Assembly: GCA_964644815.1 (NCBI GenBank)
Contig: CAZXXI010000001.1
Span: forward strand, 1 to 37,194
DNA length: 37,194 bases
Source of the DNA: an uncultured Muribaculaceae bacterium
GTDB taxonomy: Bacteria; Bacillota_I; Bacilli_A; RF39; UBA660
Reading direction: 5' to 3'
Every line of letters begins with the position of its first letter. The stretch's first letter is position 1. Below the pieces are notes generated by a model that saw only the letters and a list, made by a program, of their open reading frames with translations, ran no database searches and was not told the DNA's origin. The position numbers and the translations under genes were made by a program. This document shows positions 1-29,921 of the stretch, one piece after another.

Positions 1-41
1 GAGAAAAATGAAATCTGTCCGGTATAATAATAAGTAGAGGG
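1..41 (+). promoter_or_regulatory. Copy 1 of a 41-nt conserved promoter-like element (GAGAAAAATnnAATCTnTCCGGTATAATAATAAGTAGAGGG); possibly cut by the window edge
   Basis: 39/41 identical to the copies at 21103-21143 and 34834-34874. Perfect TATAAT at 23-28. AGGAGGA follows 7 nt after the core. Confidence 0.6.
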
Positions 42-60
42 GTTAGAAAGGAGGACTAAA

Positions 61-114
61 ATGCGCCTTATATTTTTGCTGAAGCTTTTAGCGGGTTTAT
101 TACTATTTTTGTAG
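61..114 (+). CDS. 17-codon hydrophobic micro-ORF (MRLIFLLKLLAGLLLFL)
   Basis: ATG preceded by AAAGGAGGA at 47-55 with about 5-nt spacing. Entirely hydrophobic apart from R2 and K8. Lies between the conserved element and the exporter gene. Too short for the ORF track. Confidence 0.3.
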   Translation: MRLIFLLKLLAGLLLFL

Positions 115-131
115 TTAGAAAGGAGTAACCC

Positions 132-2147
132 ATGCGCAAAAACGTTATATATATCCAAGAAGATGCTTCTTCCTGTGGAGCAGTATCTATCGCCAGCATT
201 CTCTCCTTTTATGGAGGATATGTTCCTTTAGAAAAGATTTTAGAGGACACTTCGACTGATAAGTCGGGTACTAATGCCTTAGAACTGGTGCGTGCGCTAT
301 CCCTATACGGATTCTCGGCAACGGGTAAAAGAGTAAGTGAAAAGGATTTAGGCTCTCTTACCTTGCCAGCGATTGCCCACGTCTCTATAGATGGCTATGA
401 ACACTTCGTCGTCATCTACGAGCTCAAAGGAAGCAATATTATCGCGATGGACCCCGCCTGTGGCAAAAAGATTTACTCTAAAGATGAATTTAGAAAAATA
501 TTTACCGGGCACGTAATAGAAGTCGTCAAAGAGGGCGATATTCCCCATTACCGAAAAAGTCAAAGTATCAGACGACTACTATTAAACGTATTAAAAACTC
601 AGCGCAGAAACATCTTTAAAATCGCCATTCTCAATATAGCTATAGCGCTTTTGGGAATATTGTCGTCATTCCATCTGAAGGCTTTGAGTATCGTCTCGGA
701 TGCTCTTATAGTGACCGCTTTATTCGTCATCATAAGAGTCATTGCCTTCGAACTCTCTAACGTGCGCATTATCGCCTTAGAACACTTAAACAAGCGTTTA
801 GAAGACGATACCGTCTACAAATTCGTCGACCACCTACTGCAGATGCCGCTTTCTGTTTTAAAAAGGAAGAGGACGGGTGAGTTGCTGCGCAAAGTAGAAG
901 AACTTTCCTTCATCAAAGAGTTAGTCGTCCGCCTATGTTTTCTAAACACTTTGGACGTCCTTACCATCATCATGACTCTCGTGATATCTTCTAGTATTTC
1001 GAAAAGGCTTACTTGCATTTACTTAGTGCTCGCTATAGGAATCGTCCTTTTGACGCCATTTTTAAAGAAAAAGATATTCAGAAGTACTAAGGAGGTCTTA
1101 AAGAGTAACGACGAATATAAAAGCACTTTAATAGAGACGCTCGACGCTATCGAAAGCGTTAAGAACTTGAATAAAGAGGATGTATTTTTAGAGACAGCGG
1201 GAGCTGATTTAAAAAAATATACCGGTATGCGGGAAAGGGCAAATCGTTTTCTCACGATGACGGATGAACTGAAGATGTATATTTACGATTCTGCTATCTT
1301 TTTAGTAAACTTCATAGGTTTTTCTCTTTTGAACGAATCTTTTACACTTTATGACCTCATGCTCATCGAATCGCTTTTTGCCTTATTGTATTCGTCTTTA
1401 GAGAGCTTGATGGATACTTTTGTCCATCTCATTAAAGCTAAAGTATCCTATCGGTCTTTATCCGAATTATTAGATGTCGAAGAAGAAAAGCGGACATCAT
1501 CGGTCAAAGAAGACTTTAAAGACATAGCTATAACCGATTTCAGTTATTCTTATGACTCCTTAAATCGCGTCGTAGATGGCATCTCTCTTCGCATCGCAAG
1601 AGGAGATAAAATACTTCTATGTGGCCCATCCGGTGTGGGTAAGAGCACCCTGGTGAAGTGCCTTGCCGGATACTACGCTTCCTATATGGGAAAAATATCT
1701 TTGAACGGAAAGGACATTAAAAGTCTAGGTACGAACATTCTTCGCAACTATATCGTATATGTCGGACAAGAAGAAACACTCTTTAGAAAATCCGTCGCCG
1801 AAAATATCGCTTTAGGTGATTTTGACGAAAAGCGGTTTAAAGAAGTGATAGCCATGACGAAAGTCGATGAAATAATAAAAAAGAGACGCGAGGGCAAAGA
1901 CACCGTCCTTTTAGAAGGGGCGTCCAATCTATCGGGAGGAGAGCGTTCGCGGATTATCCTAGCGCGTGCCTTATACAAAAGACCGGCCGTTCTCATCGTC
2001 GATGAAACGCTTTCGAGTGTCGATTTGGATATGGAAGATGAAATCATCGCCAACCTGCAAAGCATGGAAGAACTAACTCTCATATATATAACGCACCGCG
2101 ACAAAAAGAAATTATTTAATGATGTAATTACACTTAGAAAGGATTGA
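132..2147 (+). CDS. Peptide/bacteriocin ABC exporter with N-terminal C39 peptidase domain (ComA/LagD/BlpA-like)
   Basis: N-terminus QEDASSCGAVSIASILSFYGG (Gln9/Cys15) plus EHFVVIY His and MDPA Asp give the C39 catalytic set. A six-helix-like hydrophobic core follows. Walker A GPSGVGKST, signature LSGGERSR, Walker B LIVDETLS, H-loop ITHR. SD GAAAGGAG precedes the ATG. Confidence 0.92.
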   Translation: MRKNVIYIQEDASSCGAVSIASILSFYGGYVPLEKILEDTSTDKSGTNALELVRALSLYGFSATGKRVSEKDLGSLTLPAIAHVSIDGYEHFVVIYELKGSNIIAMDPACGKKIYSKDEFRKIFTGHVIEVVKEGDIPHYRKSQSIRRLLLNVLKTQRRNIFKIAILNIAIALLGILSSFHLKALSIVSDALIVTALFVIIRVIAFELSNVRIIALEHLNKRLEDDTVYKFVDHLLQMPLSVLKRKRTGELLRKVEELSFIKELVVRLCFLNTLDVLTIIMTLVISSSISKRLTCIYLVLAIGIVLLTPFLKKKIFRSTKEVLKSNDEYKSTLIETLDAIESVKNLNKEDVFLETAGADLKKYTGMRERANRFLTMTDELKMYIYDSAIFLVNFIGFSLLNESFTLYDLMLIESLFALLYSSLESLMDTFVHLIKAKVSYRSLSELLDVEEEKRTSSVKEDFKDIAITDFSYSYDSLNRVVDGISLRIARGDKILLCGPSGVGKSTLVKCLAGYYASYMGKISLNGKDIKSLGTNILRNYIVYVGQEETLFRKSVAENIALGDFDEKRFKEVIAMTKVDEIIKKRREGKDTVLLEGASNLSGGERSRIILARALYKRPAVLIVDETLSSVDLDMEDEIIANLQSMEELTLIYITHRDKKKLFNDVITLRKD

Positions 2148-2151
2148 AAAC

Positions 2152-2295
2152 ATGTTATTACAAGAAAGAGAACTATTATCTATCGAGGGTGGTGGCAGCC
2201 CTGGTTTAGCCATGATTATTGGAGGACTGATTATCCTATTATTGGGCGTCCTGGATGGTTACTATAATTCTATAAAATGTGGAAAGAGGAGATAA
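2152..2295 (+). CDS. Double-glycine-leader peptide 1 (47 aa; predicted mature 33 aa GSPGLAMIIGGLIILLLGVLDGYYNSIKCGKRR)
   Basis: My own translation: MLLQERELLSIEGG|GSPG... The leader fits L(-12) E(-8) L(-7) I(-4) G(-2) G(-1). SD AGAAAGGA lies 8 nt upstream. Sits immediately after the C39 exporter. Hydrophobic with a GxxxG motif (GVLDG). Confidence 0.7.
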   Translation: MLLQERELLSIEGGGSPGLAMIIGGLIILLLGVLDGYYNSIKCGKRR

Positions 2296-2296
2296 A

Positions 2297-2455
2297 ATGA
2301 TATTAAAAAATGAAGAATTGACAAAAATAACGGGTGGAGGAGCTATAAGTGGAACGCTTCTAAATGCCGTCGCCAAGTTGGTCGAAACTCTATACGACAC
2401 GGGCAAACAAATAGGCAGAACACTCTTTAAAATATACCATAAAAATTATTGTTAA
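2297..2455 (+). CDS. Double-glycine-leader peptide 2 (52 aa; predicted mature 38 aa GAISGTLLNAVAKLVETLYDTGKQIGRTLFKIYHKNYC)
   Basis: My own translation: MILKNEELTKITGG|GAIS... Same leader consensus positions as peptide 1. SD AAGAGGAG lies 5 nt upstream. Cationic and amphipathic, with GxxxG motifs (GAISG, GKQIG). Confidence 0.7.
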   Translation: MILKNEELTKITGGGAISGTLLNAVAKLVETLYDTGKQIGRTLFKIYHKNYC

Positions 2456-2458
2456 GTC

Positions 2459-2488
2459 TTGCTTAAAGCGTCCTTAAAATGCTATAAT
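2459..2488 (+). promoter_or_regulatory. Sigma-A-type promoter for cca (TTGCTT-18-TGcTATAAT)
   Basis: -35 at 2459-2464. Extended -10 TGCTATAAT at 2480-2488. Confidence 0.45.
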
Positions 2489-2518
2489 GGATATGCTTAT
2501 ATTAAAGGGTGATGACAT

Positions 2519-3601
2519 ATTATAGAAGACGCATTAAAGCTGTTAAAGAAAATAGAAGAAAAGGGCTATCCGGCCTATATCGTCGGAGGATTCGTAAGAG
2601 ATTATCTTCTCGGTATCGTCTCGTGCGACGTCGACATAGCTACCTCGGCTAAGCCAAAAGAGATTCGCGAAATATTCTCTATAACATCGGGTGAAGCTTT
2701 TGGTAGTCAACGTTTTAATTATCGCGATTTAAATGTCGATGTGACGACTTTTAGAATAGAAGGCGACTATGAATTTAGGCGTCCTACTAAAGTGGAATAT
2801 GTCACGGATGTTTTAACCGATTTAAAACGGAGAGACTTCACAGTCAATGCCATCTGTCTCGATAGCAAGGGTAACATCTATGACCCCTTACACGGCTTTC
2901 AGGACCTCCAAAATCGGCTTATCCGTGTGATTGGTGAGCCGGCAGTCAAATTTAACGACGACCCTTTGCGCGTCATGCGGGCACTGCGTTTCGCTATTAT
3001 GTACGATTTCGAAATAGAGCAATCGGCTCTCGAATATATATTGGAGCATAAAGAATTGATTAAAAAGATATCTTATGATAGAAAGAAGCGCGAACTGGAT
3101 AAAATACTTCTTTCTAAAAAAGCTAAACGTGGCCTTCAATATTTAAAAGAACTGGGTCTTCTCGAAGTGCTAGAGATTTCCTTTGACGATAACTTTAGAA
3201 CGAATTACGACATAATCGGTTCTTGGTCGGAATTGGAGTTTTCGCCAAATTATCCCTTCACTAAGTTAGAGAAGAAACGCATCGCTTTGCTGCGCGAAAT
3301 CGTCAAAAAGAAAACAGTAAACAGAGAAACTATTTTTGAAGCAGGGCTATATGATTCACTGGTCGCTGGCGATATCTTGCGAATAGAACGCGAAGATATA
3401 TTGAAAATATACGACGAATTACCGATACGTAACGACAGCGAACTGGCCATCGACGGTGAGCGAATAAAAAGTATTTTAAACATCCCAACTGGGCCACTTA
3501 TAAAAGAAATCAAAAAAGACTTGCTAAGAGAAGTAATAAGTGGTAATCTACCTAATAGAGACAAAGAGTTAGAAGAATATATAAAAGAGAAGTGGAAGTG
3601 A
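2519..3601 (+). CDS. cca: CCA-adding tRNA nucleotidyltransferase; 5' end non-canonical (ATT/ATA start or 1-nt indel)
   Basis: The frame is open from 2516 and encodes ..ALKLLKKIEEKGYPAYIVGGFVRDYLLG..DVDIATSA..RRDFTVNA, the poly(A) polymerase/CCA head domain. This lies upstream of the ORF-track GTG at 2741. No ATG, GTG or TTG is in frame before 2741. SD AAAGGGTGA at 2504-2512 sits 6 nt before ATT 2519. Confidence 0.8.
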   Translation: MIEDALKLLKKIEEKGYPAYIVGGFVRDYLLGIVSCDVDIATSAKPKEIREIFSITSGEAFGSQRFNYRDLNVDVTTFRIEGDYEFRRPTKVEYVTDVLTDLKRRDFTVNAICLDSKGNIYDPLHGFQDLQNRLIRVIGEPAVKFNDDPLRVMRALRFAIMYDFEIEQSALEYILEHKELIKKISYDRKKRELDKILLSKKAKRGLQYLKELGLLEVLEISFDDNFRTNYDIIGSWSELEFSPNYPFTKLEKKRIALLREIVKKKTVNRETIFEAGLYDSLVAGDILRIEREDILKIYDELPIRNDSELAIDGERIKSILNIPTGPLIKEIKKDLLREVISGNLPNRDKELEEYIKEKWK

Positions 3602-3605
3602 AAAC

Positions 3606-4004
3606 ATGGGCGATACTATCGTTAAATTGTATCAAAAACAAAATTTTGTCATAGGCGAAGACATCCTTCGAACTATCAAAAAAAACGATTTAACTTTAGA
3701 CGAAGCTCTTTTAATAATCTACTTCTGTGGCAATAATACTCATCCCATCTTAGATGTCGACGAGATAAGGGAGAAATTCGGTATGTCCGAACTGGCCATC
3801 ATGAAAGCCTTTTCCAATATTACTAATAGAAACCTCATTTCAATCAAAATGGAGAAAAACCGCGATGGCAAAGTAGAGGAAATCATCGATTTGACCCCCT
3901 TTTACGCTTCTATCGCTATCGACATAAACGAAAGCGTGAAGAAATCGAACGACGAATCCGTCTTTAATCTCTTCGAACGCGAATTCGGAAGGCCTCTATC
4001 TTAG
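3606..4004 (+). CDS. dnaD: DnaD replication-initiation protein, N-terminal fragment (ends at in-frame TAG)
   Basis: Winged-helix-like N-domain ending in FEREFGRPLS, which is the start of the conserved DnaD C-domain motif F..EFGRPLSP.E.E. Same frame as 4005-4256. dnaD-nth synteny as in B. subtilis. Confidence 0.75.
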   Translation: MGDTIVKLYQKQNFVIGEDILRTIKKNDLTLDEALLIIYFCGNNTHPILDVDEIREKFGMSELAIMKAFSNITNRNLISIKMEKNRDGKVEEIIDLTPFYASIAIDINESVKKSNDESVFNLFEREFGRPLS

Positions 4005-8118: not shown

Positions 8119-8156
8119 GATTATGGGCTTTTTTTCTACTCTATTGTATTTTTTGT

Positions 8157-8185
8157 TTGCAAATTTTTACACTTTCCTATATAAT
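8157..8185 (+). promoter_or_regulatory. Sigma-A-type promoter TTGCAA-17-TATAAT
   Basis: -35 at 8157-8162 (this TTG is the ORF-track start). -10 at 8180-8185. Confidence 0.5.
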
Positions 8186-8210
8186 TTTAGTACACGGAAG
8201 GAGACAATAT

Positions 8211-9296
8211 ATGGATAAGTTAGAAGTTAATCGCACGAATAATAGTAATGTATCCTTCGACGTCTTCGCCTTAGAGAAAAAGAAAAAATACAGTCTCATA
8301 AGAGAAATAGACTATCATTTCATAAGGATAAACGACGTGCCTACCTCTTCGAGAATTAAGGGTATTAAAAAGAGCATAAACAAAACGGGCATCAAGATGA
8401 ACGAGAGTAAGATAATCAACCGCTACATGAGAACGATGGAAAATGCCGGCTTCGATCTTTCGATGCTCTATACGCAATTTAAGAATACAGCTATCGATTT
8501 TAGGACGAGTGGTCTTACCGGTACATACGATTTAGAAAACAATACACTTTTAGTAGACAGTGAAGATGTCACGAACAGTTTAATCCGCGCACTTTTCGAT
8601 ATGACGATGACGAGAAAATATCCAAATTTTGTCACAAGAGGGTTCGAATCTGTATCGGTTTGTACTTCCCCAAGTGGTAAAAATATTACTTCGCATATAG
8701 GCTTCGGTCTCTATGAAGCATATAAAGAACTCATTTTAAAAAGACTTTTCGACATTCCTGTCCGCTCGACCGAAATGTACGACCTCGTGCGTCTTATCGA
8801 AATAGCAGTGGGAGAAAAGAGAATGAAACAACTTTTCGAACAGGGTGCCATAGGAAATTTCGCAAAAAAAATGAATATAAAAACTATTTACCTCATGGAC
8901 ATTTTATATCAGAGGATTTGCAAACGTGGCAAGATTGGCATACAAAAGACGACGCGCCTATTCAGTCATGCGCTTAGAGAGTTCACCAAAGATGCAGTAG
9001 CGCAGCTAAAAAGAGATGCCGACGATGCAATAGTCTTAAAGTGGGATAGTGTAGATGGCGAATGGCAAAGGACTATATATGAAGATGACTTGGATAGAGC
9101 CAAACAAGAACTCAGAGAAGTAAGAGAAATCGTCAGCTATTACCAAAGACAGGAAGCGTTTAAAGTTAAATTAGCTAATGAAGATTCGGCTTACGTCGAA
9201 ATGTTATTGGATAATGCCCGAATTCAAGATTCGAGCTATCTAATAGGAATAGCGGGACCAGTTAAAAGGCTCCGCGGAACAAGCAGAAGAAGATGA
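8211..9296 (+). CDS. Hypothetical protein (361 aa), no family recognised
   Basis: Long ORF. ATG 8211 is preceded by GGAAGGAGA and lies downstream of the promoter. Basic C-terminal tail RLRGTSRRR. Confidence 0.6.
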   Translation: MDKLEVNRTNNSNVSFDVFALEKKKKYSLIREIDYHFIRINDVPTSSRIKGIKKSINKTGIKMNESKIINRYMRTMENAGFDLSMLYTQFKNTAIDFRTSGLTGTYDLENNTLLVDSEDVTNSLIRALFDMTMTRKYPNFVTRGFESVSVCTSPSGKNITSHIGFGLYEAYKELILKRLFDIPVRSTEMYDLVRLIEIAVGEKRMKQLFEQGAIGNFAKKMNIKTIYLMDILYQRICKRGKIGIQKTTRLFSHALREFTKDAVAQLKRDADDAIVLKWDSVDGEWQRTIYEDDLDRAKQELREVREIVSYYQRQEAFKVKLANEDSAYVEMLLDNARIQDSSYLIGIAGPVKRLRGTSRRR

Positions 9297-9336
9297 CAAA
9301 AGAGAATAGAAAGAAAGTTTATATGAGGTGGTATAG

Positions 9337-9927
9337 ATGAAAATCGAATCGGCAGAGCTTACCAATATTGCAGTTAGGACAGACCAATATCCGAAGGGTG
9401 ACGACCCGGAGTTTTTACTCGTCGGACGAAGCAATGTAGGGAAAAGCAGTTTCATAAACACTATAATAAACAAAAAGAATTATGCGCACACATCGAGCAC
9501 ACCAGGAAAAACGCAGACTCTGAATTTCTATTTTGTAAATAGCTCTTTTTACCTCGTAGACGTTCCCGGCTATGGCTATGCTAAAGTCGACAAGCCTACC
9601 CAAAAGAAATTCGGACTCATGATAGAGGACTACTTAAAGACTCGTTACACTCTAAAAAGAGTTTTCTTGCTCATCGACTTTAGAATTAGGCCTACGGAAG
9701 ACGACGTCTTGATGTATAACTACTTAAAATATTATAAGATTCCCGTTACCGTCGTCGCTACCAAGTTCGACAAAGTTAAAATGAAGGCTCGTGACAAACA
9801 GATGAAAATCGTCGAAGAGACCATCAAACTCGAAGATGGCGACGACATAGTCTATTTCTCCAGCGTCAACAAAAAGGGTAAGCAGGAAATATACAATATA
9901 ATAGAGAGCTACTTAGATGAAATCTAA
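9337..9927 (+). CDS. engB: Ribosome-biogenesis GTPase EngB/YsxC
   Basis: G1 GRSNVGKSSFIN, G3 DVPGYG, G4 TKFDK; about 195 aa. Confidence 0.9.
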   Translation: MKIESAELTNIAVRTDQYPKGDDPEFLLVGRSNVGKSSFINTIINKKNYAHTSSTPGKTQTLNFYFVNSSFYLVDVPGYGYAKVDKPTQKKFGLMIEDYLKTRYTLKRVFLLIDFRIRPTEDDVLMYNYLKYYKIPVTVVATKFDKVKMKARDKQMKIVEETIKLEDGDDIVYFSSVNKKGKQEIYNIIESYLDEI

Positions 9928-9946
9928 GTTTTTCTTTTGGTAAAAA

Positions 9947-10015
9947 TTCGCCAAACTCGGAAGTAAACCTGCGCCAAATTCGGAAGTAAAATTGCGCCAA
10001 ATTCGGAAGTAAAAT
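9947..10015. repeat. Three tandem 23-bp direct repeats (TGCGCCAAATTCGGAAGTAAAAT)
   Basis: 9970-9992 and 9993-10015 are identical. 9947-9969 matches at 19/23. The array ends 1 nt before the -35 of the next promoter. Confidence 0.85.
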
Positions 10016-10016
10016 G

Positions 10017-10045
10017 TTGCTAAACATAGAAGTATACGTTATAAT
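10017..10045 (+). promoter_or_regulatory. Sigma-A-type promoter TTGCTA-17-TATAAT
   Basis: -35 at 10017-10022, -10 at 10040-10045, 23 nt upstream of the ATPase ATG. Confidence 0.5.
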
Positions 10046-10068
10046 ATTGATAGAAAAGAGGAACTTTT

Positions 10069-11358
10069 ATGGATAAATATATGCCTAGATTGGTAGATGA
10101 TTATATATCTAAACGCATGGAACTGTTTGGAGCAATACTCATCGAAGGTTGCAAATGGTGTGGCAAATCGACGACGGGAAGACAGTTTTCTAAGAGCATT
10201 TTAGAATTTCAAAATCCCGATATGTATAAGAATAATAAACAAATTGCGAATACCCAACCGTCACTATTTTTAGAAAGGGAAAAGCCTTTACTCATAGATG
10301 AATGGCAAGTGTTTCCAATAGTTTGGGACTCGATAAGATACGATGTAGACAAAACGAGACTCAAAGGGCAGTACATTTTGACGGGTTCAGCTACTCCTAG
10401 AGAAAACTATTCTAACGAAGGCGAAGATAATATACCGAAACACACAGGAACAGGAAGAATCGCTCGCGTTTTAATGAGGCCTATGTCGCTTTATGAATCG
10501 GAGGAATCGACTGGTGAAGTGTCTTTAAAAAGTCTTTTCGACGGTAATGCAGATATAAAGGGAATTTCTAAACAAAATTTGAAAGATATCGCTTTTCTAA
10601 TCGCCCGCGGCGGCTGGCCAGAAGCAGTAGATGTCCATGCCGAAAAAGCCTTGATATATGCTAATGAATATATCGAAATGATTATAAATAAAGATATCCA
10701 CGAAATAGACGGCACTAAAAGGAGTCCGGCTAAAGTAAGGGGTGTATTGAAAAGTCTTGCTAGAAATGTTTCTTCGACGGCGAGCTTATCGACGATTAAA
10801 GCTGATGTCGATATCGCAGAAGATATCGTTTCTGAAAAGACGATTGCCAATTACATCGATGCTTTAGAAAAGATGTTTGTCTTGGAGAAGGTCGATTGCT
10901 GGCAGCCAAAACTTAGAAGCAAAACAGTTATAAGGTCTAGTGAGAAAAGAGAGTTTACTGACCCATCTCTCGCCATGGCGGCTCTCAAAGCCACTGATAA
11001 AGATTTATTACAAGACTTTAATACGTTTGGTTTGATGTTCGAAGCTATGTGTATAAGAGATTTGAGAATATACTCCCAAAATTTAGAGGGTGAAGTATTT
11101 TACTATCGTGATAAAAATGGCCTCGAATGCGACGCAGTAGTTCATTTACACAATGGAAGATGGGCTGCCATCGAAGTAAAACTAGGTGGAAATGAAGTAT
11201 TGGACGAAGCTGCCAAAAATTTATTAAAATTCAAAGAAGTAATTGATGTCAATAAGATGAACGAACCTTCTTTCTTGATGATACTGACCGCAACGGAATA
11301 CGCCTATCGAAGAGAAGATGGCGTAATAGTATGTCCTTTAGGATGCCTTAAAAATTGA
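10069..11358 (+). CDS. AAA-family ATPase with DUF4143-type C-terminal domain (AAA_14/DUF4143 ATP-binding protein)
   Basis: Walker A GCKWCGKST, Walker B LLIDEWQ, about 430 aa. The overall layout is typical of the widespread DUF4143 ATPases. Confidence 0.7.
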   Translation: MDKYMPRLVDDYISKRMELFGAILIEGCKWCGKSTTGRQFSKSILEFQNPDMYKNNKQIANTQPSLFLEREKPLLIDEWQVFPIVWDSIRYDVDKTRLKGQYILTGSATPRENYSNEGEDNIPKHTGTGRIARVLMRPMSLYESEESTGEVSLKSLFDGNADIKGISKQNLKDIAFLIARGGWPEAVDVHAEKALIYANEYIEMIINKDIHEIDGTKRSPAKVRGVLKSLARNVSSTASLSTIKADVDIAEDIVSEKTIANYIDALEKMFVLEKVDCWQPKLRSKTVIRSSEKREFTDPSLAMAALKATDKDLLQDFNTFGLMFEAMCIRDLRIYSQNLEGEVFYYRDKNGLECDAVVHLHNGRWAAIEVKLGGNEVLDEAAKNLLKFKEVIDVNKMNEPSFLMILTATEYAYRREDGVIVCPLGCLKN

Positions 11359-14702: not shown

Positions 14703-15876
14703 ACTTATAATAATTAAATATGGCGAACTGACGACCAAGAAGGGCAACATCAAATTTTTCATCAAAACTTTGAAGAAGAATATCGAAGTAGCTCTAGATG
14801 GGCTCGACTATAAAATCGAATACGACAACGGTCGCATGTTCATCTTTTCAAAAGACTTAGAGAGTATTCAAAAGAAACTCTCCTATGTCTTCGGCATTCA
14901 CGAGATAATCATCGGCTACGAGTATGAGAGCATCGCTATAGAAGACCTAAAAGATAACTTGCGCACATTGATAGACGATATCGATATCGATACTTTTAAA
15001 GTTCGCACCAAGAGAAGCTTTAAGGGCTATCCTCTCACGTCGATGGAAGTGAGTAGAATATTAGGAGGAGTCGTTTTACAGCATAAGAAGAACTCCAAAG
15101 TAGACGTCCACGAACCGAAACTGATGATAGACATCGAAATCCGTTTCAATAAGTCCTACATCTATTTAGATGGTACTCCTGGACTTCACGGCTATCCCGT
15201 CGGCGTCCAAGGCAAGGGCTTACTTATGCTCTCGGGTGGCATCGACTCTCCTGTCGCAGGATATCTTGCGATGAAAAGAGGAGTGCGAATAGAGGGCATT
15301 TATTTCGAAAGTCCTCCCCATACGAGCGACGCCGCTAAAGAAAAAGTAAAAGAGCTCACCAAAATTTTGTCTTCTTACTCGGGATACATCAAACTGCACG
15401 TCATAAATTTTACCGAAATACAGGAGACCATATATAAAAATATTCCTCACGAATATTTGATTACTATCATGCGCCGCATGATGTATCGCATCGCTGAACG
15501 CATAGCACACAAGAACAACGCTAAAATACTCGTAAATGGAGAATCCATCGGTCAAGTCGCGAGTCAGACTCTAGCGAGCATGAGTGTCATCAACGAAGTA
15601 GTCAGCCTGCCCGTCATAAGGCCGGTCGCCTGTCTCGATAAACTGGAGATTATAGATATCTCTAAAAAGATAGGGACTTATGAGACGAGCATCTTGCCAT
15701 ACGAAGACTGCTGTACGATTTTTGTGCCCGAACATCCAGTCATCAACCCGGAACGCGATAAGTGCGTAGATTACGAGGGCCTAATCGACTACGAGACGCT
15801 CATCAAAGAGGCCATCAAAAATGAAGAAGTGTTGACGATTAGAAAAAACGACAAAAAGTTTGAAGATATACTTTAA
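14695..15876 (+). CDS. thiI: tRNA 4-thiouridine synthase ThiI
   Basis: THUMP-type N-terminus (IIIKYGELTTKKGN). PP-loop SGGIDSPVA. The start could also be 14686 or 14689. Confidence 0.9.
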   Translation: MNKLIIIKYGELTTKKGNIKFFIKTLKKNIEVALDGLDYKIEYDNGRMFIFSKDLESIQKKLSYVFGIHEIIIGYEYESIAIEDLKDNLRTLIDDIDIDTFKVRTKRSFKGYPLTSMEVSRILGGVVLQHKKNSKVDVHEPKLMIDIEIRFNKSYIYLDGTPGLHGYPVGVQGKGLLMLSGGIDSPVAGYLAMKRGVRIEGIYFESPPHTSDAAKEKVKELTKILSSYSGYIKLHVINFTEIQETIYKNIPHEYLITIMRRMMYRIAERIAHKNNAKILVNGESIGQVASQTLASMSVINEVVSLPVIRPVACLDKLEIIDISKKIGTYETSILPYEDCCTIFVPEHPVINPERDKCVDYEGLIDYETLIKEAIKNEEVLTIRKNDKKFEDIL

Positions 15877-15898
15877 TCGACGCATTTCGACAAAATAT

Positions 15899-15925
15899 GC
15901 ATACTTTCTATGGTATGCTTTTTTT
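15899..15925 (+). terminator. Rho-independent terminator after thiI
   Basis: GCATAC/GTATGC stem, 8-nt loop, T7 tail. It lies inside the ORF-track 5' extension of the next ORF. Confidence 0.6.
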
Positions 15926-15934
15926 GGTGATGAA

Positions 15935-16339
15935 ATGAGAACCTTTTATATCTTTAAGATAACCCCCGAATTCAAAACGATTACGAAAAATCAGCCGTAC
16001 AATCTTTTTCTCGCACTCGAAAACATCCACACCATGGACAAGAAAGACATCAATCTAGCCGTCAAGATGTACGAAGAGGTGTGTGGTCCCTTCGACATCC
16101 GATCAATCAACCTGTCCCTTTTTAACATCCTACAGGATAACGACTTCTATACCAAGTTTAACAACAACCACTTGATAAATAATTACTACACCGACGAGTC
16201 TTCGAAACTGACCATCTATAAGACTTACCTCCGGCTCAAGTCTTCTCTCAACAATCCTACCTTTTTTGGAGCTCTGAAGGTGTTTCCCGACCTCTTCGTC
16301 ATCGACTTCGAAGAAAAAGATTATTTTTGGTTGTCATAG
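15935..16339 (+). CDS. SirA (YneE)-like protein, putative DnaA-inhibitor family
   Basis: MRTFYIFKITPEF.. and the C-terminal LFVIDFEEKDYFWL resemble B. subtilis SirA (..YTYLIKEEF.., ..FLAMDFNSKRYGWL, from memory). It sits directly upstream of yneF, as in Bacillus. Confidence 0.5.
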   Translation: MRTFYIFKITPEFKTITKNQPYNLFLALENIHTMDKKDINLAVKMYEEVCGPFDIRSINLSLFNILQDNDFYTKFNNNHLINNYYTDESSKLTIYKTYLRLKSSLNNPTFFGALKVFPDLFVIDFEEKDYFWLS

Positions 16340-21215: not shown

Positions 21216-22268
21216 ATGAAAAAAGAAACGACTACAGCTAATAAAAATAAAGATAAAGCTTTAGAAGAAGTCATGGCCCAAATCGAAAAACAGTTCGGTA
21301 AAGGGGCCATTATGAAACTTGGAAGTGAAGAGCACATCCAAGTAGAAGCGACGCCTACTGGGTCTTTAGGACTCGACATAGCTTTAGGTGTCGGAGGTTA
21401 TCCAAAAGGACGCATCATCGAAATATTTGGACCGGAATCGAGTGGTAAGACGACCTTTGCCCTAGAGGCGATAGCCGAATGCCAAAAAAGAGGTGGCCGC
21501 TGTGCATTCATCGATGCCGAACACGCATTGGACCCCATCTATAGTAAAAATTTGGGAGTAAATATCGACGAATTGCTATTGAGCCAGCCGGATACAGGAG
21601 AGCAAGCCTTAGAAATCGTCGACGCTCTTGTCAAGAGCGAAGCTGTCAACTTGATAGTCATCGATTCCGTCGCCGCTTTGGTACCTAAAGCTGAAATAGA
21701 GGGCGAGATGGGCGATTCCCACGTCGGATTGCAAGCTCGCCTCATGAGCCAAGCGCTGCGCAAACTCTCTGGCACTATCAACAAAACTTCGACGACTGCC
21801 ATATTTATCAACCAGCTGCGCGAAAAAGTCGGCGTCATGTTCGGAAATCCGGAGACTACTCCCGGTGGACGCGCACTCAAATTCTATGCTTCTGTCCGCC
21901 TCGACATTAGAAAGGGCGAAGCTATTAAAAATGGCGACCAAATAATCGGTAATAAGACCAAAGTTAAAGTAGTCAAAAACAAAGTAGCACCACCTTTTAG
22001 AAGCATCGAAGTCGACATAATGTACGGCGAAGGCGTCTCCAAAGAGGGCGAACTTTTGGACATCGGAACCGACATCGACATCATCGAAAAATCGGGTGCT
22101 TGGTATGCCTATAATGGTGAGAAAATCGGGCAAGGTAAAGAAAACGCTAAAATATACTTGAAAGAAAATCCGGTGACTGCTCGCGAAATCGAAGATAAGA
22201 TTCGCGCTCACTACGAAATAGCTGAAAAAGAAGCTAAAAAAGCGAAATCTAATGAAAAAGACGAATAA
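21216..22268 (+). CDS. recA: Recombinase RecA
   Basis: Unmistakable RecA sequence: GPESSGKTT Walker [10 protein letters not shown] Walker B, L2 loop region. SD AGGAGG. Confidence 0.98.
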
Positions 22269-22270
22269 TG

Positions 22271-22299
22271 GAGAAAAAACTCGCTTTTTTCTCTTTTTT
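22271..22299 (+). terminator. Rho-independent terminator after recA
   Basis: 9-bp stem GAGAAAAAA/TTTTTTCTC, 5-nt loop, T6 tail. Confidence 0.65.
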
Positions 22300-22340
22300 G
22301 TGGTAGTATATCTGCGACAAAAAAAGGGGATGATTTAATC

Positions 22341-23318
22341 GTGCTTAAAACATATCTCAAAGAATGCGGACTGACCGACGATAAAATAGATTACGTACTA
22401 AAGTGTTTAAGACTGAACTATCATAAACACGAGACTGTACTTAGCCATCTCGAAGAAAACGTCACCTATTTAAAAGATTTCGGTTTCCAAAAAAGACAAA
22501 TATGTACGATTCTAACGACTTGCATAGCTATCTATCAGATAACAAAAGATTTATTAGAAAAGCGTTTGCAATATTTTTTAGATAACGGCTTGACGACCAA
22601 AGAAGTAATAAAAATCTACTCTACTAGGAGTCGACTCATCACTTTCAGTATAGCTAATATAGAAGGAAAAATAAAAACATATGTTGCCTATGGCTTCAAA
22701 AGAGAAGAAATATTTGCCCTCTGTAGGAAATACCCCCAAATTTTCACTTTGGCACCCGAGACAATTCTAGCTAGAATGAAGTTCATTATAAGCCTTGGGC
22801 TCGCTAAAAAAGAGGCCATGACTTTGGTCATAAAAAATCCCAGCACTCTAGGTTTAACCGAAGAAAATCTATCTGCTAAAATAGCCGTTCTCTCAGCGCT
22901 AGGATTGAAAAATAAAGAAGTGGCTCTCGTCGTAAAGTCTTTCCCAGGAGTTATGAATCTGACACCAAAGAACGTCCAAAGAAAAATAGCACTTTTGCAA
23001 GAGTTCAATTATAATAGTGAAGAGATTAAAAGATTAGTCGTCGGATTTCCTGCTCTTTTGGGCTTGTCCATCGATAATCTGCGCGCAAAACTCGCTTTAG
23101 TTAAAGACTGTGACATCAAGGATTTAATCGTCAAAAAGCCCAAAAACTTAATGCAGAGTAGAGAATTGACTGAAAGAAGATATCTTTTCCTATCTACCCT
23201 TGAGATTAGCAATTTGAGTTTAGCTAACTATCTATTCGCGACGCCAAGTCGCTTTGCTCAAAAGTTTAACGTAGACGATGAAGAATTGAAGAAAAAATAT
23301 GAAAAGGAGATGCAATAA
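22341..23318 (+). CDS. Helical-repeat protein with about eight 35-aa mTERF-like repeats
   Basis: Repeats such as LGLAKKEAMTLVIKNPSTLGLTEENLSAKIAVL / LGLKNKEVALVVKSFPGVMNLTPKNVQRKIALL / FNYNSEEIKRLVVGFPALLGLSIDNLRAKLALV fit the mTERF pattern (G-f-s..e....v...P.il..s.e.l..k). GTG start with SD AAGGGGA. Confidence 0.65.
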   Translation: MLKTYLKECGLTDDKIDYVLKCLRLNYHKHETVLSHLEENVTYLKDFGFQKRQICTILTTCIAIYQITKDLLEKRLQYFLDNGLTTKEVIKIYSTRSRLITFSIANIEGKIKTYVAYGFKREEIFALCRKYPQIFTLAPETILARMKFIISLGLAKKEAMTLVIKNPSTLGLTEENLSAKIAVLSALGLKNKEVALVVKSFPGVMNLTPKNVQRKIALLQEFNYNSEEIKRLVVGFPALLGLSIDNLRAKLALVKDCDIKDLIVKKPKNLMQSRELTERRYLFLSTLEISNLSLANYLFATPSRFAQKFNVDDEELKKKYEKEMQ

Positions 23319-24304
23319 TGGAAGAAAGTATAACTATGTATAGAGATTACGGCATAACGGAATGGAGAGAGAAGTGTCTAGTTTTGACATCCATCGAAAA
23401 AGCTGCTGTCGAAAGAGATTTGCAAGACGAGATAAACTCGCCCTTAGCCGCCATCGTCAAATTGCCTTTTCCACACTTTGCCGCAATTTATTTACAGAGA
23501 TTCCCAAGTGCTATAAATCTCATAAAAGACCCTGCTATCGGCTATAAACTCTACATGTTATCAGACCCCGCTTTGCGACTTGTCATCGAAGAACACCGCA
23601 ATCCGACTAAAATCCGTTCAACTTTGCAAAAAGAGATGCAAATATCTCCTAACACGACAGATGAAATCGACCAAATATTACACATTCCTCTCGAAGATTC
23701 ATTGAAGATTATCAGTTCCAAAGAAAACAACGTAGTGCGCGAGAAGAAATTTTATTATTTGACCCAGTATATCGATTTAAAGGAGGCCAAACGAATAGGG
23801 CTATCCCAAGCTCTGGTTTTCGAATTAGATGGAGTAGACGGTTTTGAGCTTGAGAAAAAATTATCGCTATTGAATCCTATCGCTAGGACGATAGTAGCTC
23901 TTTCTATAGGGCTCTATGGTGAACATAGACATACTTTAAAAGATATATCCGATTGTATTAAAATACCGCCTCAAAAGATTAAGAAAATACATGACTTTTT
24001 GTTGCCGTTACTATTGAAAACTCGTGGCGAAATGGCGCATATTATCGGTTTAAAGAGTGGAATCTTCGGTATGGACGATACGCGCGAGTATACCAATTTA
24101 ACGTACAGAGAACTCGACATAAGTATGGAACTGGCTTACATCAAAGCCCACTTAAACGAAAGAGACCGATTAGTATTGAGTTCTTATTCAAAAAAAGAAA
24201 TCGATATCTACTTGGCGAGTAAGTATTTATTTAAAACGCCGGCTTCCTTAGCAACTAATATGAGTTTATCGCTTGAAGAAGCCAGAAACAGACTTGGGCT
24301 TTAG
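23318..24304 (+). CDS. Hypothetical protein with two sigma-70 region-4-like HTH segments
   Basis: LNPIARTIVALSIGLYGEHRHTLKDISDCIKIPPQKIKKIHDFLL and LNERDRLVLSSY...ASLATNMSLSLEEARNRL resemble the region-4 pattern L..rer.vl.l.yGl....tl.eIa..l.vs...v.... The start overlaps the upstream stop codon (TAATG). Confidence 0.5.
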   Translation: MEESITMYRDYGITEWREKCLVLTSIEKAAVERDLQDEINSPLAAIVKLPFPHFAAIYLQRFPSAINLIKDPAIGYKLYMLSDPALRLVIEEHRNPTKIRSTLQKEMQISPNTTDEIDQILHIPLEDSLKIISSKENNVVREKKFYYLTQYIDLKEAKRIGLSQALVFELDGVDGFELEKKLSLLNPIARTIVALSIGLYGEHRHTLKDISDCIKIPPQKIKKIHDFLLPLLLKTRGEMAHIIGLKSGIFGMDDTREYTNLTYRELDISMELAYIKAHLNERDRLVLSSYSKKEIDIYLASKYLFKTPASLATNMSLSLEEARNRLGL

Positions 24305-24333
24305 AAATACTAGTAATAGAAAGCAGGTTATTC

Positions 24334-24978
24334 ATGGAAAACGCACAATACCGAAGTACGGTAAAAAAGACTATCGGTTTTTTAGAAAAAGAACGCACAA
24401 ACAATGCAGAAGATTTAAAAAAGAGTCCAAACGGCTTGCCTTCACTTTTTGATGGCATCAAATATTTTGGACCTTGGTCAATAGGTTCTTTCTTATTCGT
24501 CAAAGTTACTTGTCTATTGACTAGCATGGACTTAAATCCCGTACGAGTCTATTCTATACCTATACAGGGTAGCACTCTTTTGTCCCTCATAGCGAGTACT
24601 TATATGTCTACCGTCCTTTTAGGATTATCTATCATATCCAAAAACTATTACGACGATGAAATGCGCAAGAAAGAAGCACTAAAAATATATGACCTATTGA
24701 CCGAAGAAGAACTCGCTCTTAAAAAAGAGGAATATAGAAAACCGAATAACGCCAAAGAAGATGAAAAACTTATCACCCTCGAAGAATATAAGAAGAGAAT
24801 GCTCACACGCAAAAAGATGATACTGACGCTCGGGCAATTTAAAAAACAAGTCTTAAAGCACAGTCGTCAAGGGAATCTCGAAGCGTACTTAATGAGCATT
24901 GGCATTTCTATGGATGAGTTTAGAGATAATCGAGAATTTATAGAGAAAAACTTTCATCTCGAAATAAGTCGCCACTGA
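24334..24978 (+). CDS. Hypothetical 2-TM membrane protein with charged helical C-terminal half
   Basis: Hydrophobic segments FGPWSIGSFLFVKVTCLLTS and STLLSLIASTYMSTVLLGLSII, then a K/E-rich tail. Confidence 0.55.
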   Translation: MENAQYRSTVKKTIGFLEKERTNNAEDLKKSPNGLPSLFDGIKYFGPWSIGSFLFVKVTCLLTSMDLNPVRVYSIPIQGSTLLSLIASTYMSTVLLGLSIISKNYYDDEMRKKEALKIYDLLTEEELALKKEEYRKPNNAKEDEKLITLEEYKKRMLTRKKMILTLGQFKKQVLKHSRQGNLEAYLMSIGISMDEFRDNREFIEKNFHLEISRH

Positions 24979-25006: not shown

Positions 25007-25035
25007 TTGTAAATTACCTCATTTGATTATATAAT
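25007..25035 (+). promoter_or_regulatory. Sigma-A-type promoter TTGTAA-17-TATAAT
   Basis: -35 at 25007-25012, -10 at 25030-25035, upstream of yebC. Confidence 0.5.
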
Positions 25036-25064
25036 TATTAAAATAAGAAAAGGAAGTGATTCCC

Positions 25065-25781
25065 ATGGGAAGAGCATTTGAAGTTAGAAAGGCGAGCATT
25101 CAGAAAAATGGAGCAGCTCGCGGAAAGATATATACGACATTCGCTAAAGAGATTTATTTGGCGTGTAAAAGAGGTGTGCCCGAAATAGAGAGCAATGTCG
25201 AGCTCAAAAGAGTGGTAGCCAAAGCCAAAAAGCAACAGGTTCCTAATGACCTCATCGATAGAGCCATCGCTAAAGCTAAAGGTGCCGGTCAGGAAGATTA
25301 TAAAGAAGTAATTTATGAGGGCTTCGGACCAGGTGCTAGCACGCTCATAATAAAGACGCTTACCGACAACGTCAACAGAACGGTAGGTGAAGTGCGCGCC
25401 GCCTTCAACAAAGTCCATAAAAGTTTAGGAGTCTCCAACAGCGTATCCTATAACTACGACCACTTAGCTATAATCGGCATCAAAAGCGATAAAGAGACCG
25501 AGCTATTCGAAGCTCTTTTAGATGCCGGTATCGAAATAAGAGATTTAGAAAACGAAGACGGCATCCTCGTCGTCAGTGCTGAAGCTAAAGATTCTTCGCG
25601 CGTCAAGGATGTCATCGAAGAACTCTTTCCAGGCGTAGAGCTCGAAATAGATGAAATAGGGATGTACCCTAAAGAGAAGATTACTCTAGAGGGCGAAGAT
25701 TTAGAAGTGTTCAACAAATTGTATAAGATGCTAGACGATATCGAAGACGTATCTGAAATATATACGAACGTCGAGATGTAG
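25065..25781 (+). CDS. yebC: YebC/PmpR-family transcriptional regulator (YeeN-like)
   Basis: MGRAFEVRKASIQKNGAARGKIYTTFAKEI... is the family's hallmark N-terminus. About 238 aa. ATG 25065 follows SD AAGGAAGTGA. Confidence 0.92.
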   Translation: MGRAFEVRKASIQKNGAARGKIYTTFAKEIYLACKRGVPEIESNVELKRVVAKAKKQQVPNDLIDRAIAKAKGAGQEDYKEVIYEGFGPGASTLIIKTLTDNVNRTVGEVRAAFNKVHKSLGVSNSVSYNYDHLAIIGIKSDKETELFEALLDAGIEIRDLENEDGILVVSAEAKDSSRVKDVIEELFPGVELEIDEIGMYPKEKITLEGEDLEVFNKLYKMLDDIEDVSEIYTNVEM

Positions 25782-25783
25782 AC

Positions 25784-26659
25784 ATGGTTTTAGATAAGCT
25801 AAGAGATAGAGAGATTTCATTAGTCGCCTCTTTCTTATGCGATAGTCTCGAACTCGACTCATCCTATACAGCGGTTTTTGACCGTTTTCTCACTTCTAAA
25901 AATACATCCACACTAAACGATAAAGAAAAATCCGTTTTGATAACTAAGTTTTCTAGCCTCTATAGGCAAGAGATAATATCATTAATAAAACTTTTGGTCG
26001 ACACAGAAATCGAGTACCTCGACCTTTCCGGAATAATCGAAAATATAAAGAATGTCCTATCCATCCCGGTCGATTATTCTATCGAACAGCTCGAGATAGA
26101 AGAGTTTTTTTCCAAAACGAAGCTTTGCCCTCGTCATGATGACATCGCCATGTCTCTATTTGGGCCGCATTTCGAAGTGCACGCCCTAGCAAAGGATACG
26201 CGCGTAAATCACCACGCCTTAATTCTCATCGAGATTCTAAAAAGATTATACGGTTTCGATATGGACCTCCATGCAGTTAAACTTTCGAAGCCACTCGACG
26301 ACCTCGCCGAAGAAGAGAGGAAAAGATTTATAGAGGTTCGATACGTGATGGACCCACCCGAAAAAAGTGCATTCATTTTCATACCGCAAATGATTACTCT
26401 TTATCAGTACGAAGCATTACAAAATCTCGATGATAAGCTAAAAAGTCTAAACGTCGAGACTAACGTATACGTATCTGCCTATAATCCAAAAACAGACATT
26501 GGACAGTATTATGATACGGTTTATTACTCGAAGCACTTAATAGAAGCGCTTACCTTTTTAAAGACGAGTGATAGCATAACCGACTACGAACTGCCTAAAC
26601 AAATATTTGCTTTTTCTTTCGATGGAGAAAGAAAAGAAGCCACGCCCAAGAAAGGATAA
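25784..26659 (+). CDS. Uncharacterised protein, paralogue family member 1 (291 aa)
   Basis: Shares a C-terminal roughly 180-aa domain with 26671-27591 and 29340-29921 (motifs N.H....EILKRL, IEVRYV, I.P..IT..Q.E.L.NL). Starts 2 nt after the yebC stop codon. Confidence 0.6.
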   Translation: MVLDKLRDREISLVASFLCDSLELDSSYTAVFDRFLTSKNTSTLNDKEKSVLITKFSSLYRQEIISLIKLLVDTEIEYLDLSGIIENIKNVLSIPVDYSIEQLEIEEFFSKTKLCPRHDDIAMSLFGPHFEVHALAKDTRVNHHALILIEILKRLYGFDMDLHAVKLSKPLDDLAEEERKRFIEVRYVMDPPEKSAFIFIPQMITLYQYEALQNLDDKLKSLNVETNVYVSAYNPKTDIGQYYDTVYYSKHLIEALTFLKTSDSITDYELPKQIFAFSFDGERKEATPKKG

Positions 26660-26670
26660 AAATAACGATT

Positions 26671-27591
26671 ATGAACAAAATTACGACAGAAAAAGAATTG
26701 GACTACATATTGAGCGAAAGCCTCACCGATGTCCTCGCATTAGAATACGGATCGGATAAAATAGCAGAGATTTTAAGCGAAATCGACCCTCACTTCGAAG
26801 GAGTACGTTCTCACAATCTCTTTGCCATCGACCGCGCCATTGGTTTAGCAAAGCCAAATTTTCGAGAAGCTCTTAAGAAAAACGTCCAATCTTTTACTTA
26901 TAAAAATGTACTCGAAATATTGGACGAAATAGAAACGAATATGGGCGTTTTACCAGAAGAAGCTAGAGAACAGATAGCTAAAAAACTTTCTATTTTTGTG
27001 CGAACAGTCAAAAATATCCTGCAAATACCCGTTTCTAAAGAACTTAAAACTATCGACTATACCGAGTTTTTTGATCCTTTTCGGGCGCGCACGCTAGGCT
27101 CATCTGATGACATCGGCATATCGATTATCACCTCTCGCCAAAGGATAGATGCAACTCCCACCGACAGCCGCCTAAACTACCACCCCGACATAATTTTTGA
27201 AATTTTAAAGAGACTTTTAAACGACATTCCAGCCGAAGAATTGAAAGAAAAATTGGAGTATTTTGCTGCTCGCTATATCGAAGTTCGCTATGTCGTAAAT
27301 GCCTATGGAGTAGAGGCTATCATCGGCATACCGGCCACCATCACACCCTCTCAATTCGAGGAATTGAAAAATCTAAAAGCTCTTTTCGACGAGTACGACG
27401 TAGTAACTACCACCGGCATAAGAGAGTATGACCCATCGACCAATCGGGGAGATATCGGCTATATGTTATTCGAATCAGACGACCTCGCAGAGGTGATAGA
27501 CCATATCGTTACTAATCAAATGGTAAAGGACTGCGAATTGGACGAAGAGCCGACTATCGTTTTCGAAACATCCCAAAATATTAGCATGTAA
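26671..27591 (+). CDS. Uncharacterised protein, paralogue family member 2 (306 aa)
   Basis: Collinear similarity to 25784-26659 (NILQIPV/NVLSIPV; NYHPDIIFEILKRLLN/NHHALILIEILKRLYG; YIEVRYVV/FIEVRYVM; IPATITPSQFEELKNL/IPQMITLYQYEALQNL). Confidence 0.6.
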   Translation: MNKITTEKELDYILSESLTDVLALEYGSDKIAEILSEIDPHFEGVRSHNLFAIDRAIGLAKPNFREALKKNVQSFTYKNVLEILDEIETNMGVLPEEAREQIAKKLSIFVRTVKNILQIPVSKELKTIDYTEFFDPFRARTLGSSDDIGISIITSRQRIDATPTDSRLNYHPDIIFEILKRLLNDIPAEELKEKLEYFAARYIEVRYVVNAYGVEAIIGIPATITPSQFEELKNLKALFDEYDVVTTTGIREYDPSTNRGDIGYMLFESDDLAEVIDHIVTNQMVKDCELDEEPTIVFETSQNISM

Positions 27592-29339: not shown

Positions 29340-29921
29340 ATGAAAAGAGAAATACGATACATCGACTTCAGCGACATCTTAAATCGCAACATACCGGATA
29401 AATATGGCCACGATGGTCGCCTTATCGCCGCTACAGTTATAACTCCTAAACAGGTATTAAACATAATTCCCGATAAACTCAAAACTAAATATCATTGCGA
29501 GATGTTAAAACGAGTTTTTAACGAAGTATACCCACACAGCCCTTATGAATTCAAAGATTTTTATATCCTTGCGATAGATTATGTCATATCTTCTATCGAC
29601 GAATTCGAAGAGGACACCGCTTACATCTGTTCGCCAGCTTACATCACGTTTGAACAAGCGACTTACTTAAAAGACGTCGTCGATGCCATTAAACAAGCCG
29701 GCTTCGCTGTCGGATTGATTATATGTGATACTTATCCCGGTTTAGACTCGAAACCGAAAAAATTAAAAGCTATCTTCTACGACCCCAGCGAACTCTCCAT
29801 AGTCGATAACTTGGGTGAACACATAATAGAAATCTTTGCAAATAACAACCGCATCGTCGACTCTATAGACATCTTTAAAGAGGAGTCCATCATCTCTACT
29901 GACAAGATACAAAAAATGTGA
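29340..29921 (+). CDS. Uncharacterised protein, paralogue family member 3 (193 aa, domain-only version)
   Basis: KYHCEMLKRVFNEV and YICSPAYITFEQATYLKDVVDAI align with the N.H..ILKRL and I.P..IT..Q...L motifs of 25784-27591. Confidence 0.55.
   Translation: MKREIRYIDFSDILNRNIPDKYGHDGRLIAATVITPKQVLNIIPDKLKTKYHCEMLKRVFNEVYPHSPYEFKDFYILAIDYVISSIDEFEEDTAYICSPAYITFEQATYLKDVVDAIKQAGFAVGLIICDTYPGLDSKPKKLKAIFYDPSELSIVDNLGEHIIEIFANNNRIVDSIDIFKEESIISTDKIQKM

Follow-up and report, generated by a model that had tools for sequence, protein, structure and literature searches.

Two variable gene slots around yebC in uncultured gut-associated Bacilli, one of them holding a bacterial mTERF-family gene

The stretch of DNA analyzed here (the window) is a whole 37,194-bp NCBI contig, CAZXXI010000001.1, of ordinary Bacillota chromosomal core, and the genes in question are three that lie in it between recA and yebC (genes 1, 2, and 3), together with the paralogs found between yebC and rny. 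Comparison with related loci suggested, with a probability of about 0.6, that these two intervals are hypervariable slots within a stable housekeeping frame in an uncultured, gut-associated Bacilli/'Tenericutes' lineage, and that they hold independently evolving, mostly nucleic-acid-binding proteins. The constant occupant of the first slot would be the gene-2 family, a lineage-restricted, fast-evolving set of region-4-type helix-turn-helix (HTH) regulators that duplicates in tandem to between one and four copies. In the sub-lineage of the window this slot would also have acquired gene 1, which is of the mTERF type; the acquisition appears to be recent and the gene already dispensable. Gene 3 would be a strain-specific orphan membrane-protein gene. 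The slot genes would be transcribed from a promoter of their own just after the recA terminator, as independent tenants rather than as one three-part machine.

A first-pass annotation of this DNA had read the three genes as a single undescribed module encoding a membrane-tethered complex. The trio was found in the window alone: gene 3 was present in none of the 17 related loci, and gene 1 accompanied gene 2 in one other locus (L003), with a remnant in a second (L004). As no other genome examined carries all three together, the three-gene module was refuted, and the proposed complex is effectively refuted as well. The protein-coding features discussed below are as follows, with lengths in amino acids (aa).

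21216-22268, + strand: recA, the upstream neighbor of slot 1
22341-23318, + strand: gene 1, mTERF family, about 7-8 tandem 35-residue repeats (325 aa, GTG start, isoelectric point (pI) 9.4)
23318-24304, + strand: gene 2, new all-helical family of about 330 aa (328 aa; one to four tandem copies in the slot in relatives)
23849-24037, + strand: sigma-70 region-4-like HTH of gene 2 (residues ~178-240)
24334-24978, + strand: gene 3, strain-specific orphan open reading frame (ORF) of 214 aa, characterized by codon usage (coding-like) and hydropathy
25065-25781, + strand: yebC, the anchor between the two variable slots (NCBIfam NF009044, E=6.8e-78)
25784-26659, + strand: g4, slot-2 paralog of g5
26671-27591, + strand: g5, slot-2 paralog of g4
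29340-29921, + strand: g6, the C-terminal domain of g4/g5 on its own, encoded downstream of rny (family HMM E=7e-55)

Gene order and slot contents in related loci

Related loci, cited by L numbers, were collected from contigs encoding gene-2 relatives and from a scan of GTDB species representatives, which yielded 16 loci; 17 were compared in total, and their genes were mapped by profile and BLAST. They come from uncultured metagenome-assembled genomes (MAGs), of which those that carry a title are labeled Bacilli or Tenericutes, with some labeled Muribaculaceae. The frame kept in these loci was NT5C-ada-PNP-gatD-murT-recA-(slot 1)-yebC-(slot 2)-rny-(g6)-dnaB-dnaI-miaB, where slot 1 held one to four tandem gene-2 paralogs and slot 2 held zero to three genes of the g4/g5 family. 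Ordinary frame genes were 55-91% identical to those of the window, and yebC was 87-91% identical across the related loci. The slot genes were the most diverged from their counterparts in the window: 33-50% identity for gene 2, 30% for gene 1, and 24-31% for g4 and g5. The suggestion in the first-pass annotation that this is lineage-specific content within a conserved neighborhood was thus borne out in the related loci.

The number of gene-2 copies in slot 1 varied from one (the window, L003, L004, L005, L013, and L014) through two (L006, L016, and L015, where the two are fused in one 687-aa ORF) and three (L011) to four (L012), and tandem paralogs were about 30-45% identical to one another. 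The fusion in L015 occupies positions 8132-10195, and a 198-aa ORF without a Pfam match lies between it and recA. In a second, sister lineage of lower GC content (27-31%; L001, L002, and L010), the gene-2 array was found instead upstream of a 156-aa gene, GGDEF, and BrkB, and L001 and L002 each carried four copies at this site. These arrays at the alternative site (L001:8976-13001, with the four copies, and L010:42-1070) do not lie between recA and yebC.

An mTERF gene was found alongside gene 2 only in the window and in L003. It was absent from six complete recA-yebC intervals (L005, L006, L011, L012, L015, and L016). In L004 (positions 99-375) there was an mTERF remnant, internally deleted and frame-shifted, upstream of an intact gene-2 homolog; the remnant corresponds, in two different reading frames, to residues 1-69 and 278-318 of the protein from L003, and the gene 2 next to it is 82% identical to gene 2 of L003.

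No homolog of gene 3 was found in the 17 related loci, in Pfam, NCBIfam, PHROGs, or PADLOC, or in phages, plasmids, IMG/VR, and JGI metagenomes, and its protein formed a singleton cluster. The junction between gene 2 and yebC was under ~170 nt in all 11 other loci where it was visible, so gene 3 could not fit into any of these loci. The possibility that gene 3 is a degenerate member of one of the local families was considered and rejected, as bit scores against the three local family profiles were negative. The earlier description of gene 3 as a small protein with two transmembrane segments and a charged tail is plausible: it has moderately hydrophobic segments at residues ~45-67 and at ~80-103, two in all, as well as a mixed-charge tail of 111 residues (24 K+R, 22 D+E).

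The arrangement of the three ORFs in the window was confirmed by ORF, RNA-fold, and consensus scans. All three are on the + strand, gene 1 and gene 2 overlap by one base (TAATG), and gene 3 starts after a gap of 29 nt. Codon-usage scores of all three were 0.19-0.21 in frame, whereas the five alternative frames scored between -0.09 and -0.64. In L003 the two genes are separated by 1 nt, which keeps the tight stop/start coupling, and translation of gene 2 would be coupled to that of gene 1. Three signals bear on transcription of the slot.

22270-22299, + strand: intrinsic terminator of recA, a 10-bp A/U-rich hairpin (22270-22294) followed by a U-run (RNA-fold centroid -8 kcal/mol, z=-1.85)
22301-22309, + strand: putative TG-extended -10 element (TGgTAGTAT), read from the sequence as the array's own promoter
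25007-25035, + strand: promoter-like site upstream of yebC (TTGTAA-17-TATAAT), 10 of 12 positions matching in a consensus scan

An equivalent hairpin and T-run were found 3' of recA in seven relatives (L003, L005, L006, L011, L012, L015, and L016), and in six of these (not evidently in L012) the terminator was followed by an element of the TGnTAnAAT type. In several loci a good -35 accompanied the TG-extended -10, for example TTGACA-17-TAGAAT in L016. The simple promoter scan missed the TG-extended -10 of the window because the -35 there is weak. Slot 1 is accordingly best described as a predicted transcription unit of its own, with a predicted promoter and probably insulated from recA. No convincing terminator was found after gene 3 (RNA-fold z=-0.46), in agreement with the earlier statement that none precedes the promoter-like site at 25007. 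The start of yebC is probably the ATG at 25065 rather than the upstream GTG at 25056 given by the ORF finder, because its homologs all begin MGRAFE.

The earlier observation that the genes after yebC are paralogous was upheld: g4 and g5 are 32% identical (E=1e-24). The products of g4, g5, and g6 are acidic (pI 4.6-5.1) and have in common a C-terminal domain of ~190 residues, with an invariant His and an I-P-x-x-I-T-x-x-Q motif, for which there was no Pfam match. In slot 2 of two loci (L012:6838-8376 and L016:11815-13410) a HipA-like Ser/Thr kinase domain (HipA_C, E=5e-9, 36.5 bits versus a cut-off of 30.5) stands in front of a fused member of the g4/g5 family, which hints at a toxin-antitoxin or signaling role. 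In two others (L015:11517-16593 and L017:1992-7155) slot 2 contained large surface proteins with Listeria-Bacteroides repeats and Big_2 domains in place of the g4/g5 family, which indicates that the slot accepts unrelated cargo. The structural model of g5, built from the three paralogs of the window, was too poor to interpret (predicted local distance difference test (pLDDT) 56.6), and no meaning attaches to the proteins that it matched in Foldseek, gelsolin and ExoIII among them (E>0.03).

The remainder of the window encodes a C39-ABC exporter, the CCA-adding enzyme, nth, PBP1, recU, der, iscS, thiI, and a SirA-like protein, and further NT5C, ada, PNP, gatD, murT, recA, yebC, rny, dnaB, dnaI, a miaB-like gene, radC, and mreC. 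Rfam and tRNA scans of the window were empty. The SirA-like ORF (sporulation inhibitor of replication) is at 15860-16339 (Pfam E=8.9e-8), in a lineage whose related MAGs are labeled Bacilli/Tenericutes; beyond it, no sporulation genes were seen in the window.

The mTERF-family protein and its bacterial relatives

By profile, by matches to solved structures, and by repeat period, gene 1 is a true mTERF-family protein, as the first-pass annotation had surmised. It matched the Pfam mTERF profile (PF02536) with E=6.7e-35 and 120.9 bits (cut-off 23.1), over two segments that together span most of the profile. A phmmer search against the PDB returned human MTERF1 (5crk and 3mva, 1.4e-8 to 5.5e-8) and MTERF3 (3m66, 3.1e-5), and also matched the ciliate mitoribosomal protein mS93 (4.7e-4) and MTERF4. 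Autocorrelation of the sequence was 0.49 at a lag of 35 residues and 0.27 at a lag of 70, with a shuffle maximum of -0.25. Prolines 132, 167, 202, and 237 are in register with the 35-residue repeat, and in the family alignment P202 was invariant and P237 nearly so. The usual description of an mTERF as nuclear-encoded and organelle-targeted does not fit gene 1, which is encoded in the recA-yebC interval of a bacterial contig and which, like its bacterial relatives, starts directly with the first repeat and has no targeting presequence. By analogy with eukaryotic MTERF1 and with the bacterial pTERF proteins, gene 1 would bind double-stranded DNA sequence-specifically along a basic superhelical surface, and may act as a regulator or a roadblock.

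A word-index homology search with gene 1 was empty because the exact protein is missing from the 15-billion-protein collection, in which its neighbors are present, and this result is not evidence of novelty. Relatives were resolved instead by an exhaustive search together with a profile search. Among 1.84 billion cluster representatives, 1701 qualified as relatives at E≤1e-3, of which 517 also passed E≤1e-10. The best full-sequence scores included long plant proteins, for example from Turnera subulata. When ranked by best single-domain score, the 30 nearest relatives were all short (262-607 aa), collinear with gene 1 from the first residue, and of low or middle GC-type composition, and the nearest share a C-terminal cap (LMQS...R...RF). 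Approximately 82-91 of the top 150 relatives have the composition of AT-rich bacterial proteins. No relatives were found in phages or IMG/VR.

Three bacterial mTERF genes were located on clearly bacterial contigs (L007-L009). Their neighborhoods were SpoU-rimM-trmD-trpS and ltaS; greA-tig-lon; and ABC transporters with a radical-SAM gene, and none had a gene-2 relative nearby. In L008 (positions 1-3662) there are four tandem mTERF paralogs of 361, 376, 130, and 348 aa, directly upstream of and coupled to a SpoU/MRM3-like rRNA methyltransferase, rimM, and trmD. This arrangement recalls the links of mitochondrial MTERF4-NSUN4 and MTERF3 to ribosome biogenesis, and may be a coincidence. Downstream of its mTERF array L008 keeps the block that follows the gene-2 array in the sister lineage of lower GC content, here as a 167-aa gene, GGDEF, and BrkB.

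The mTERF proteins are textbook organelle factors, and reviews of both the plant and the animal proteins have repeatedly described bacteria as lacking them. A paper on plant mTERFs says that prokaryotes have no members of the family (PMC12977773). The sole precedent found in the literature on bacterial mTERFs was the 2024 report of pTERF in Nucleic Acids Research, on tandem-repeat proteins with a 35-residue unit from Bacillota MAGs of gut or rumen; two of these, pTERF1 and pTERF2, recognize specific DNA motifs, with Kd values in the nM range (PMC11417379). In that report pTERF1 is a member of the cluster 'TR_35', its three-helix repeats were annotated with mTERF motifs, it lacks the canonical proline/leucine motif, and it has 9-18% identity to eukaryotic mTERFs (PMC11417379). 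Judged on its repeats and profile match, gene 1 belongs to this very recently recognized kind of protein, the bacterial mTERF/pTERF.

A helical family with a region-4-like domain

The gene-2 family is small, with only 7 clusters among 5.8 billion proteins, and 24 domains were found in 14 loci. No relatives of gene 2 were found in phages, IMG/VR, or JGI metagenomes. An AlphaFold model of the family was confident (pLDDT 86.7, predicted template modeling (TM) score 0.82) and contained 24 short helices, and Foldseek found no match to its whole fold in the PDB or BFVD.

Two sigma-70 region-4-like HTH segments had been proposed in gene 2 at first pass, of which the one at residues ~178-240 was retained. 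Pfam Sigma70_r4 (PF04545) matched 4 of 11 family members, with a best E-value of 1.1e-5; for gene 2 of the window the match had E=0.0037 and 17.2 bits, versus a cut-off of 24.1. The family profile also matched region 4 of SigA in the PDB. In local Foldseek alignments this segment superimposed on known region-4 structures with TM scores of 0.70-0.78 and a root-mean-square deviation of 1.6-2.0 Å over ~57 residues (6onu_H, 1rio_H, and 4g8x_A, with TM scores of 0.72-0.78). The proposed second segment did not hold up: for C-terminal residues 252-328 there was no sigma or HTH family match by profile, and only a generic HTH-like sequence pattern. Since none of the 11 members matched Sigma70_r2 or r3 at E≤1, gene 2 is not a sigma factor by membership.

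Conservation over the 24 domains was uneven. Scaffold helices scored 0.68-0.76, including 0.76 for the scaffold helix of the region-4-like HTH, and the variable parts were the putative recognition helix at residues 218-233 (0.39) and the linker at 91-140 (~0.29). The gene-2 proteins would be DNA-binding or RNA-polymerase-contacting regulators whose paralogs may differ in specificity. The equal length, the shared slot, and a weak BLAST match (E=0.05) had raised the possibility that gene 2 is a diverged mTERF paralog. This was ruled out by hhalign probabilities below 1% against both mTERF alignments, by the lack of a 35-residue periodicity, and by the lack of mTERF matches in Foldseek.

Alternative explanations and comparison with known systems

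Several points weigh against reading the two intervals as slots filled by independent genes. About 14 independent gene-2 loci make a small sample, and several of the contigs are truncated upstream. For both gene 1 and gene 2, DNA binding is predicted from family and domain resemblance only, in organisms that are uncultured. The sub-threshold Pfam match of the HTH in gene 2 of the window (17.2 versus 24.1 bits) and its unconserved recognition helix mean that the domain could mediate protein contacts instead. Finally, the conserved stop/start coupling of gene 1 and gene 2 in L003 could reflect a functional pair in this sub-lineage.

Such a pair, in which the mTERF protein might, for example, target or modulate the HTH protein at DNA sites, is nevertheless unlikely. 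In its favor, the overlap in the window and the 1-nt spacing in L003 have been kept despite protein identities of 30% for gene 1 and 50% for gene 2. However, L004 has an intact gene 2 beside the deleted, frame-shifted mTERF remnant, and gene 2 is near no other mTERF locus.

It is similarly improbable that the slots are hot spots of conflict or defense against phages or mobile elements, with functions such as abortive infection or toxin-antitoxin. In favor of this are divergence and turnover that are extreme relative to the flanking genes, the HipA-like kinase fusions of L012 and L016, and orphan genes such as gene 3 and the 198-aa ORF of L015. Against it, PADLOC returned no significant match for six proteins, the CARF_HEPN match of g5 being sub-threshold (E=0.0052, 14 bits), and there was no PHROG match; genes 1-3 had no match to either collection at E≤0.01. 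No family match places any of the genes in a known defense or termination system, functions that had been put forward at first pass, and the genes tested had no relatives in phages, plasmids, or IMG/VR. No integrase, transposase, or flanking repeats were found around the block, DNA repeats were at chance level, and the GC dip at the block is mild (0.375 versus 0.40-0.43). The surface-repeat proteins in slot 2 of L015 and L017, in place of the g4/g5 family, also speak against this reading.

There is even less reason to regard the gene-2 family as highly diverged sigma-like factors, or as binders of the RNA-polymerase beta-flap, with paralogs that serve different promoters. The region-4 pattern (L..L....R.V....GL.G) and fold match agree with this, nearly all of the top whole-chain Foldseek alignments, which were non-significant, were to sigma factors, and the NCBIfam RpoD-family model aligned to residues 102-225 of gene 2 with E=0.0013. 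On the other side, regions 2 and 3 gave no match, the whole-chain alignments had E>1 and TM scores of 0.1-0.2, and the extra C-terminal domain of gene 2 is not found in sigma factors.

The idea that the three proteins form one membrane-tethered complex for transcription, termination, or nucleic-acid handling, with the gene 3 product anchoring the HTH protein and the mTERF solenoid, agrees with the shared strand, the tight spacing, and the lack of an internal terminator, but is effectively refuted by a gene 3 that occurs in no other genome searched and has no room in 11 related loci, by a gene 1 that is absent from six complete intervals and decaying in L004, and by gene-2 arrays and bacterial mTERFs that occur independently of each other. 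Tight gene spacing in one genome is weak evidence for a functional module. These alternatives are all less supported than two hypervariable slots with independent tenants, and the interest of the locus lies chiefly in its canonical bacterial mTERF and in the unusual turnover of the two slots.

That a bacterial protein matches the canonical Pfam profile and has hundreds of related clusters shows the mTERF family to be firmly established among AT-rich Bacillota. Of the top 150 mTERF clusters at 50% identity, at least ~80 have the look of AT-rich bacterial proteins, often in tandem arrays. It can be proposed, quite tentatively, that canonical mTERF-fold proteins are a large and essentially unrecognized bacterial family which in one gut Bacilli lineage shares a diversifying locus with the new family of region-4 proteins, and that the two together are the bacterial counterpart of the expanding and fast-evolving nucleic-acid-binding repeat families of plant organelles, as programmable DNA/RNA binders that retarget transcription. 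If true, this would bear on whether the mTERF fold is of bacterial origin or was acquired from eukaryotes. Bacterial mTERFs are also candidate programmable DNA-binding scaffolds, and the gene-2 family offers an unannotated, confidently foldable protein with a sigma region-4 domain in a novel architecture.

The gene order can be compared with the recA-pbpX-rny neighborhood of B. subtilis: in both, recA and rny are near neighbors on the same strand, but in the window they are separated by yebC and two variable gene arrays. The domain at residues ~178-240 of gene 2 has the region 4.1/4.2 pattern of sigma-70 and superimposes on the solved domains. It differs in standing mid-protein, flanked by a conserved domain on the N-terminal side and an additional one on the C-terminal side, with no region 2 or 3, and in having a recognition helix that is not conserved across paralogs. 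Gene 1 resembles the eukaryotic mTERFs (PF02536; human MTERF1-4 and plant mTERFs) in being basic and in its ~35-residue repeat with a conserved proline and leucine pattern, and differs from them in being encoded on a bacterial chromosome, free of a presequence, and grouped with short bacterial-type proteins of ~260-400 aa. With pTERF it shares an origin in a Bacillota MAG of gut or rumen and tandem 35-residue repeats. Unlike pTERF1 (MBQ3414883.1), with which it was compared by published description only, gene 1 keeps the proline motif and matches the Pfam profile at E=6.7e-35, and set against that description it appears to be the more canonical mTERF of the two.

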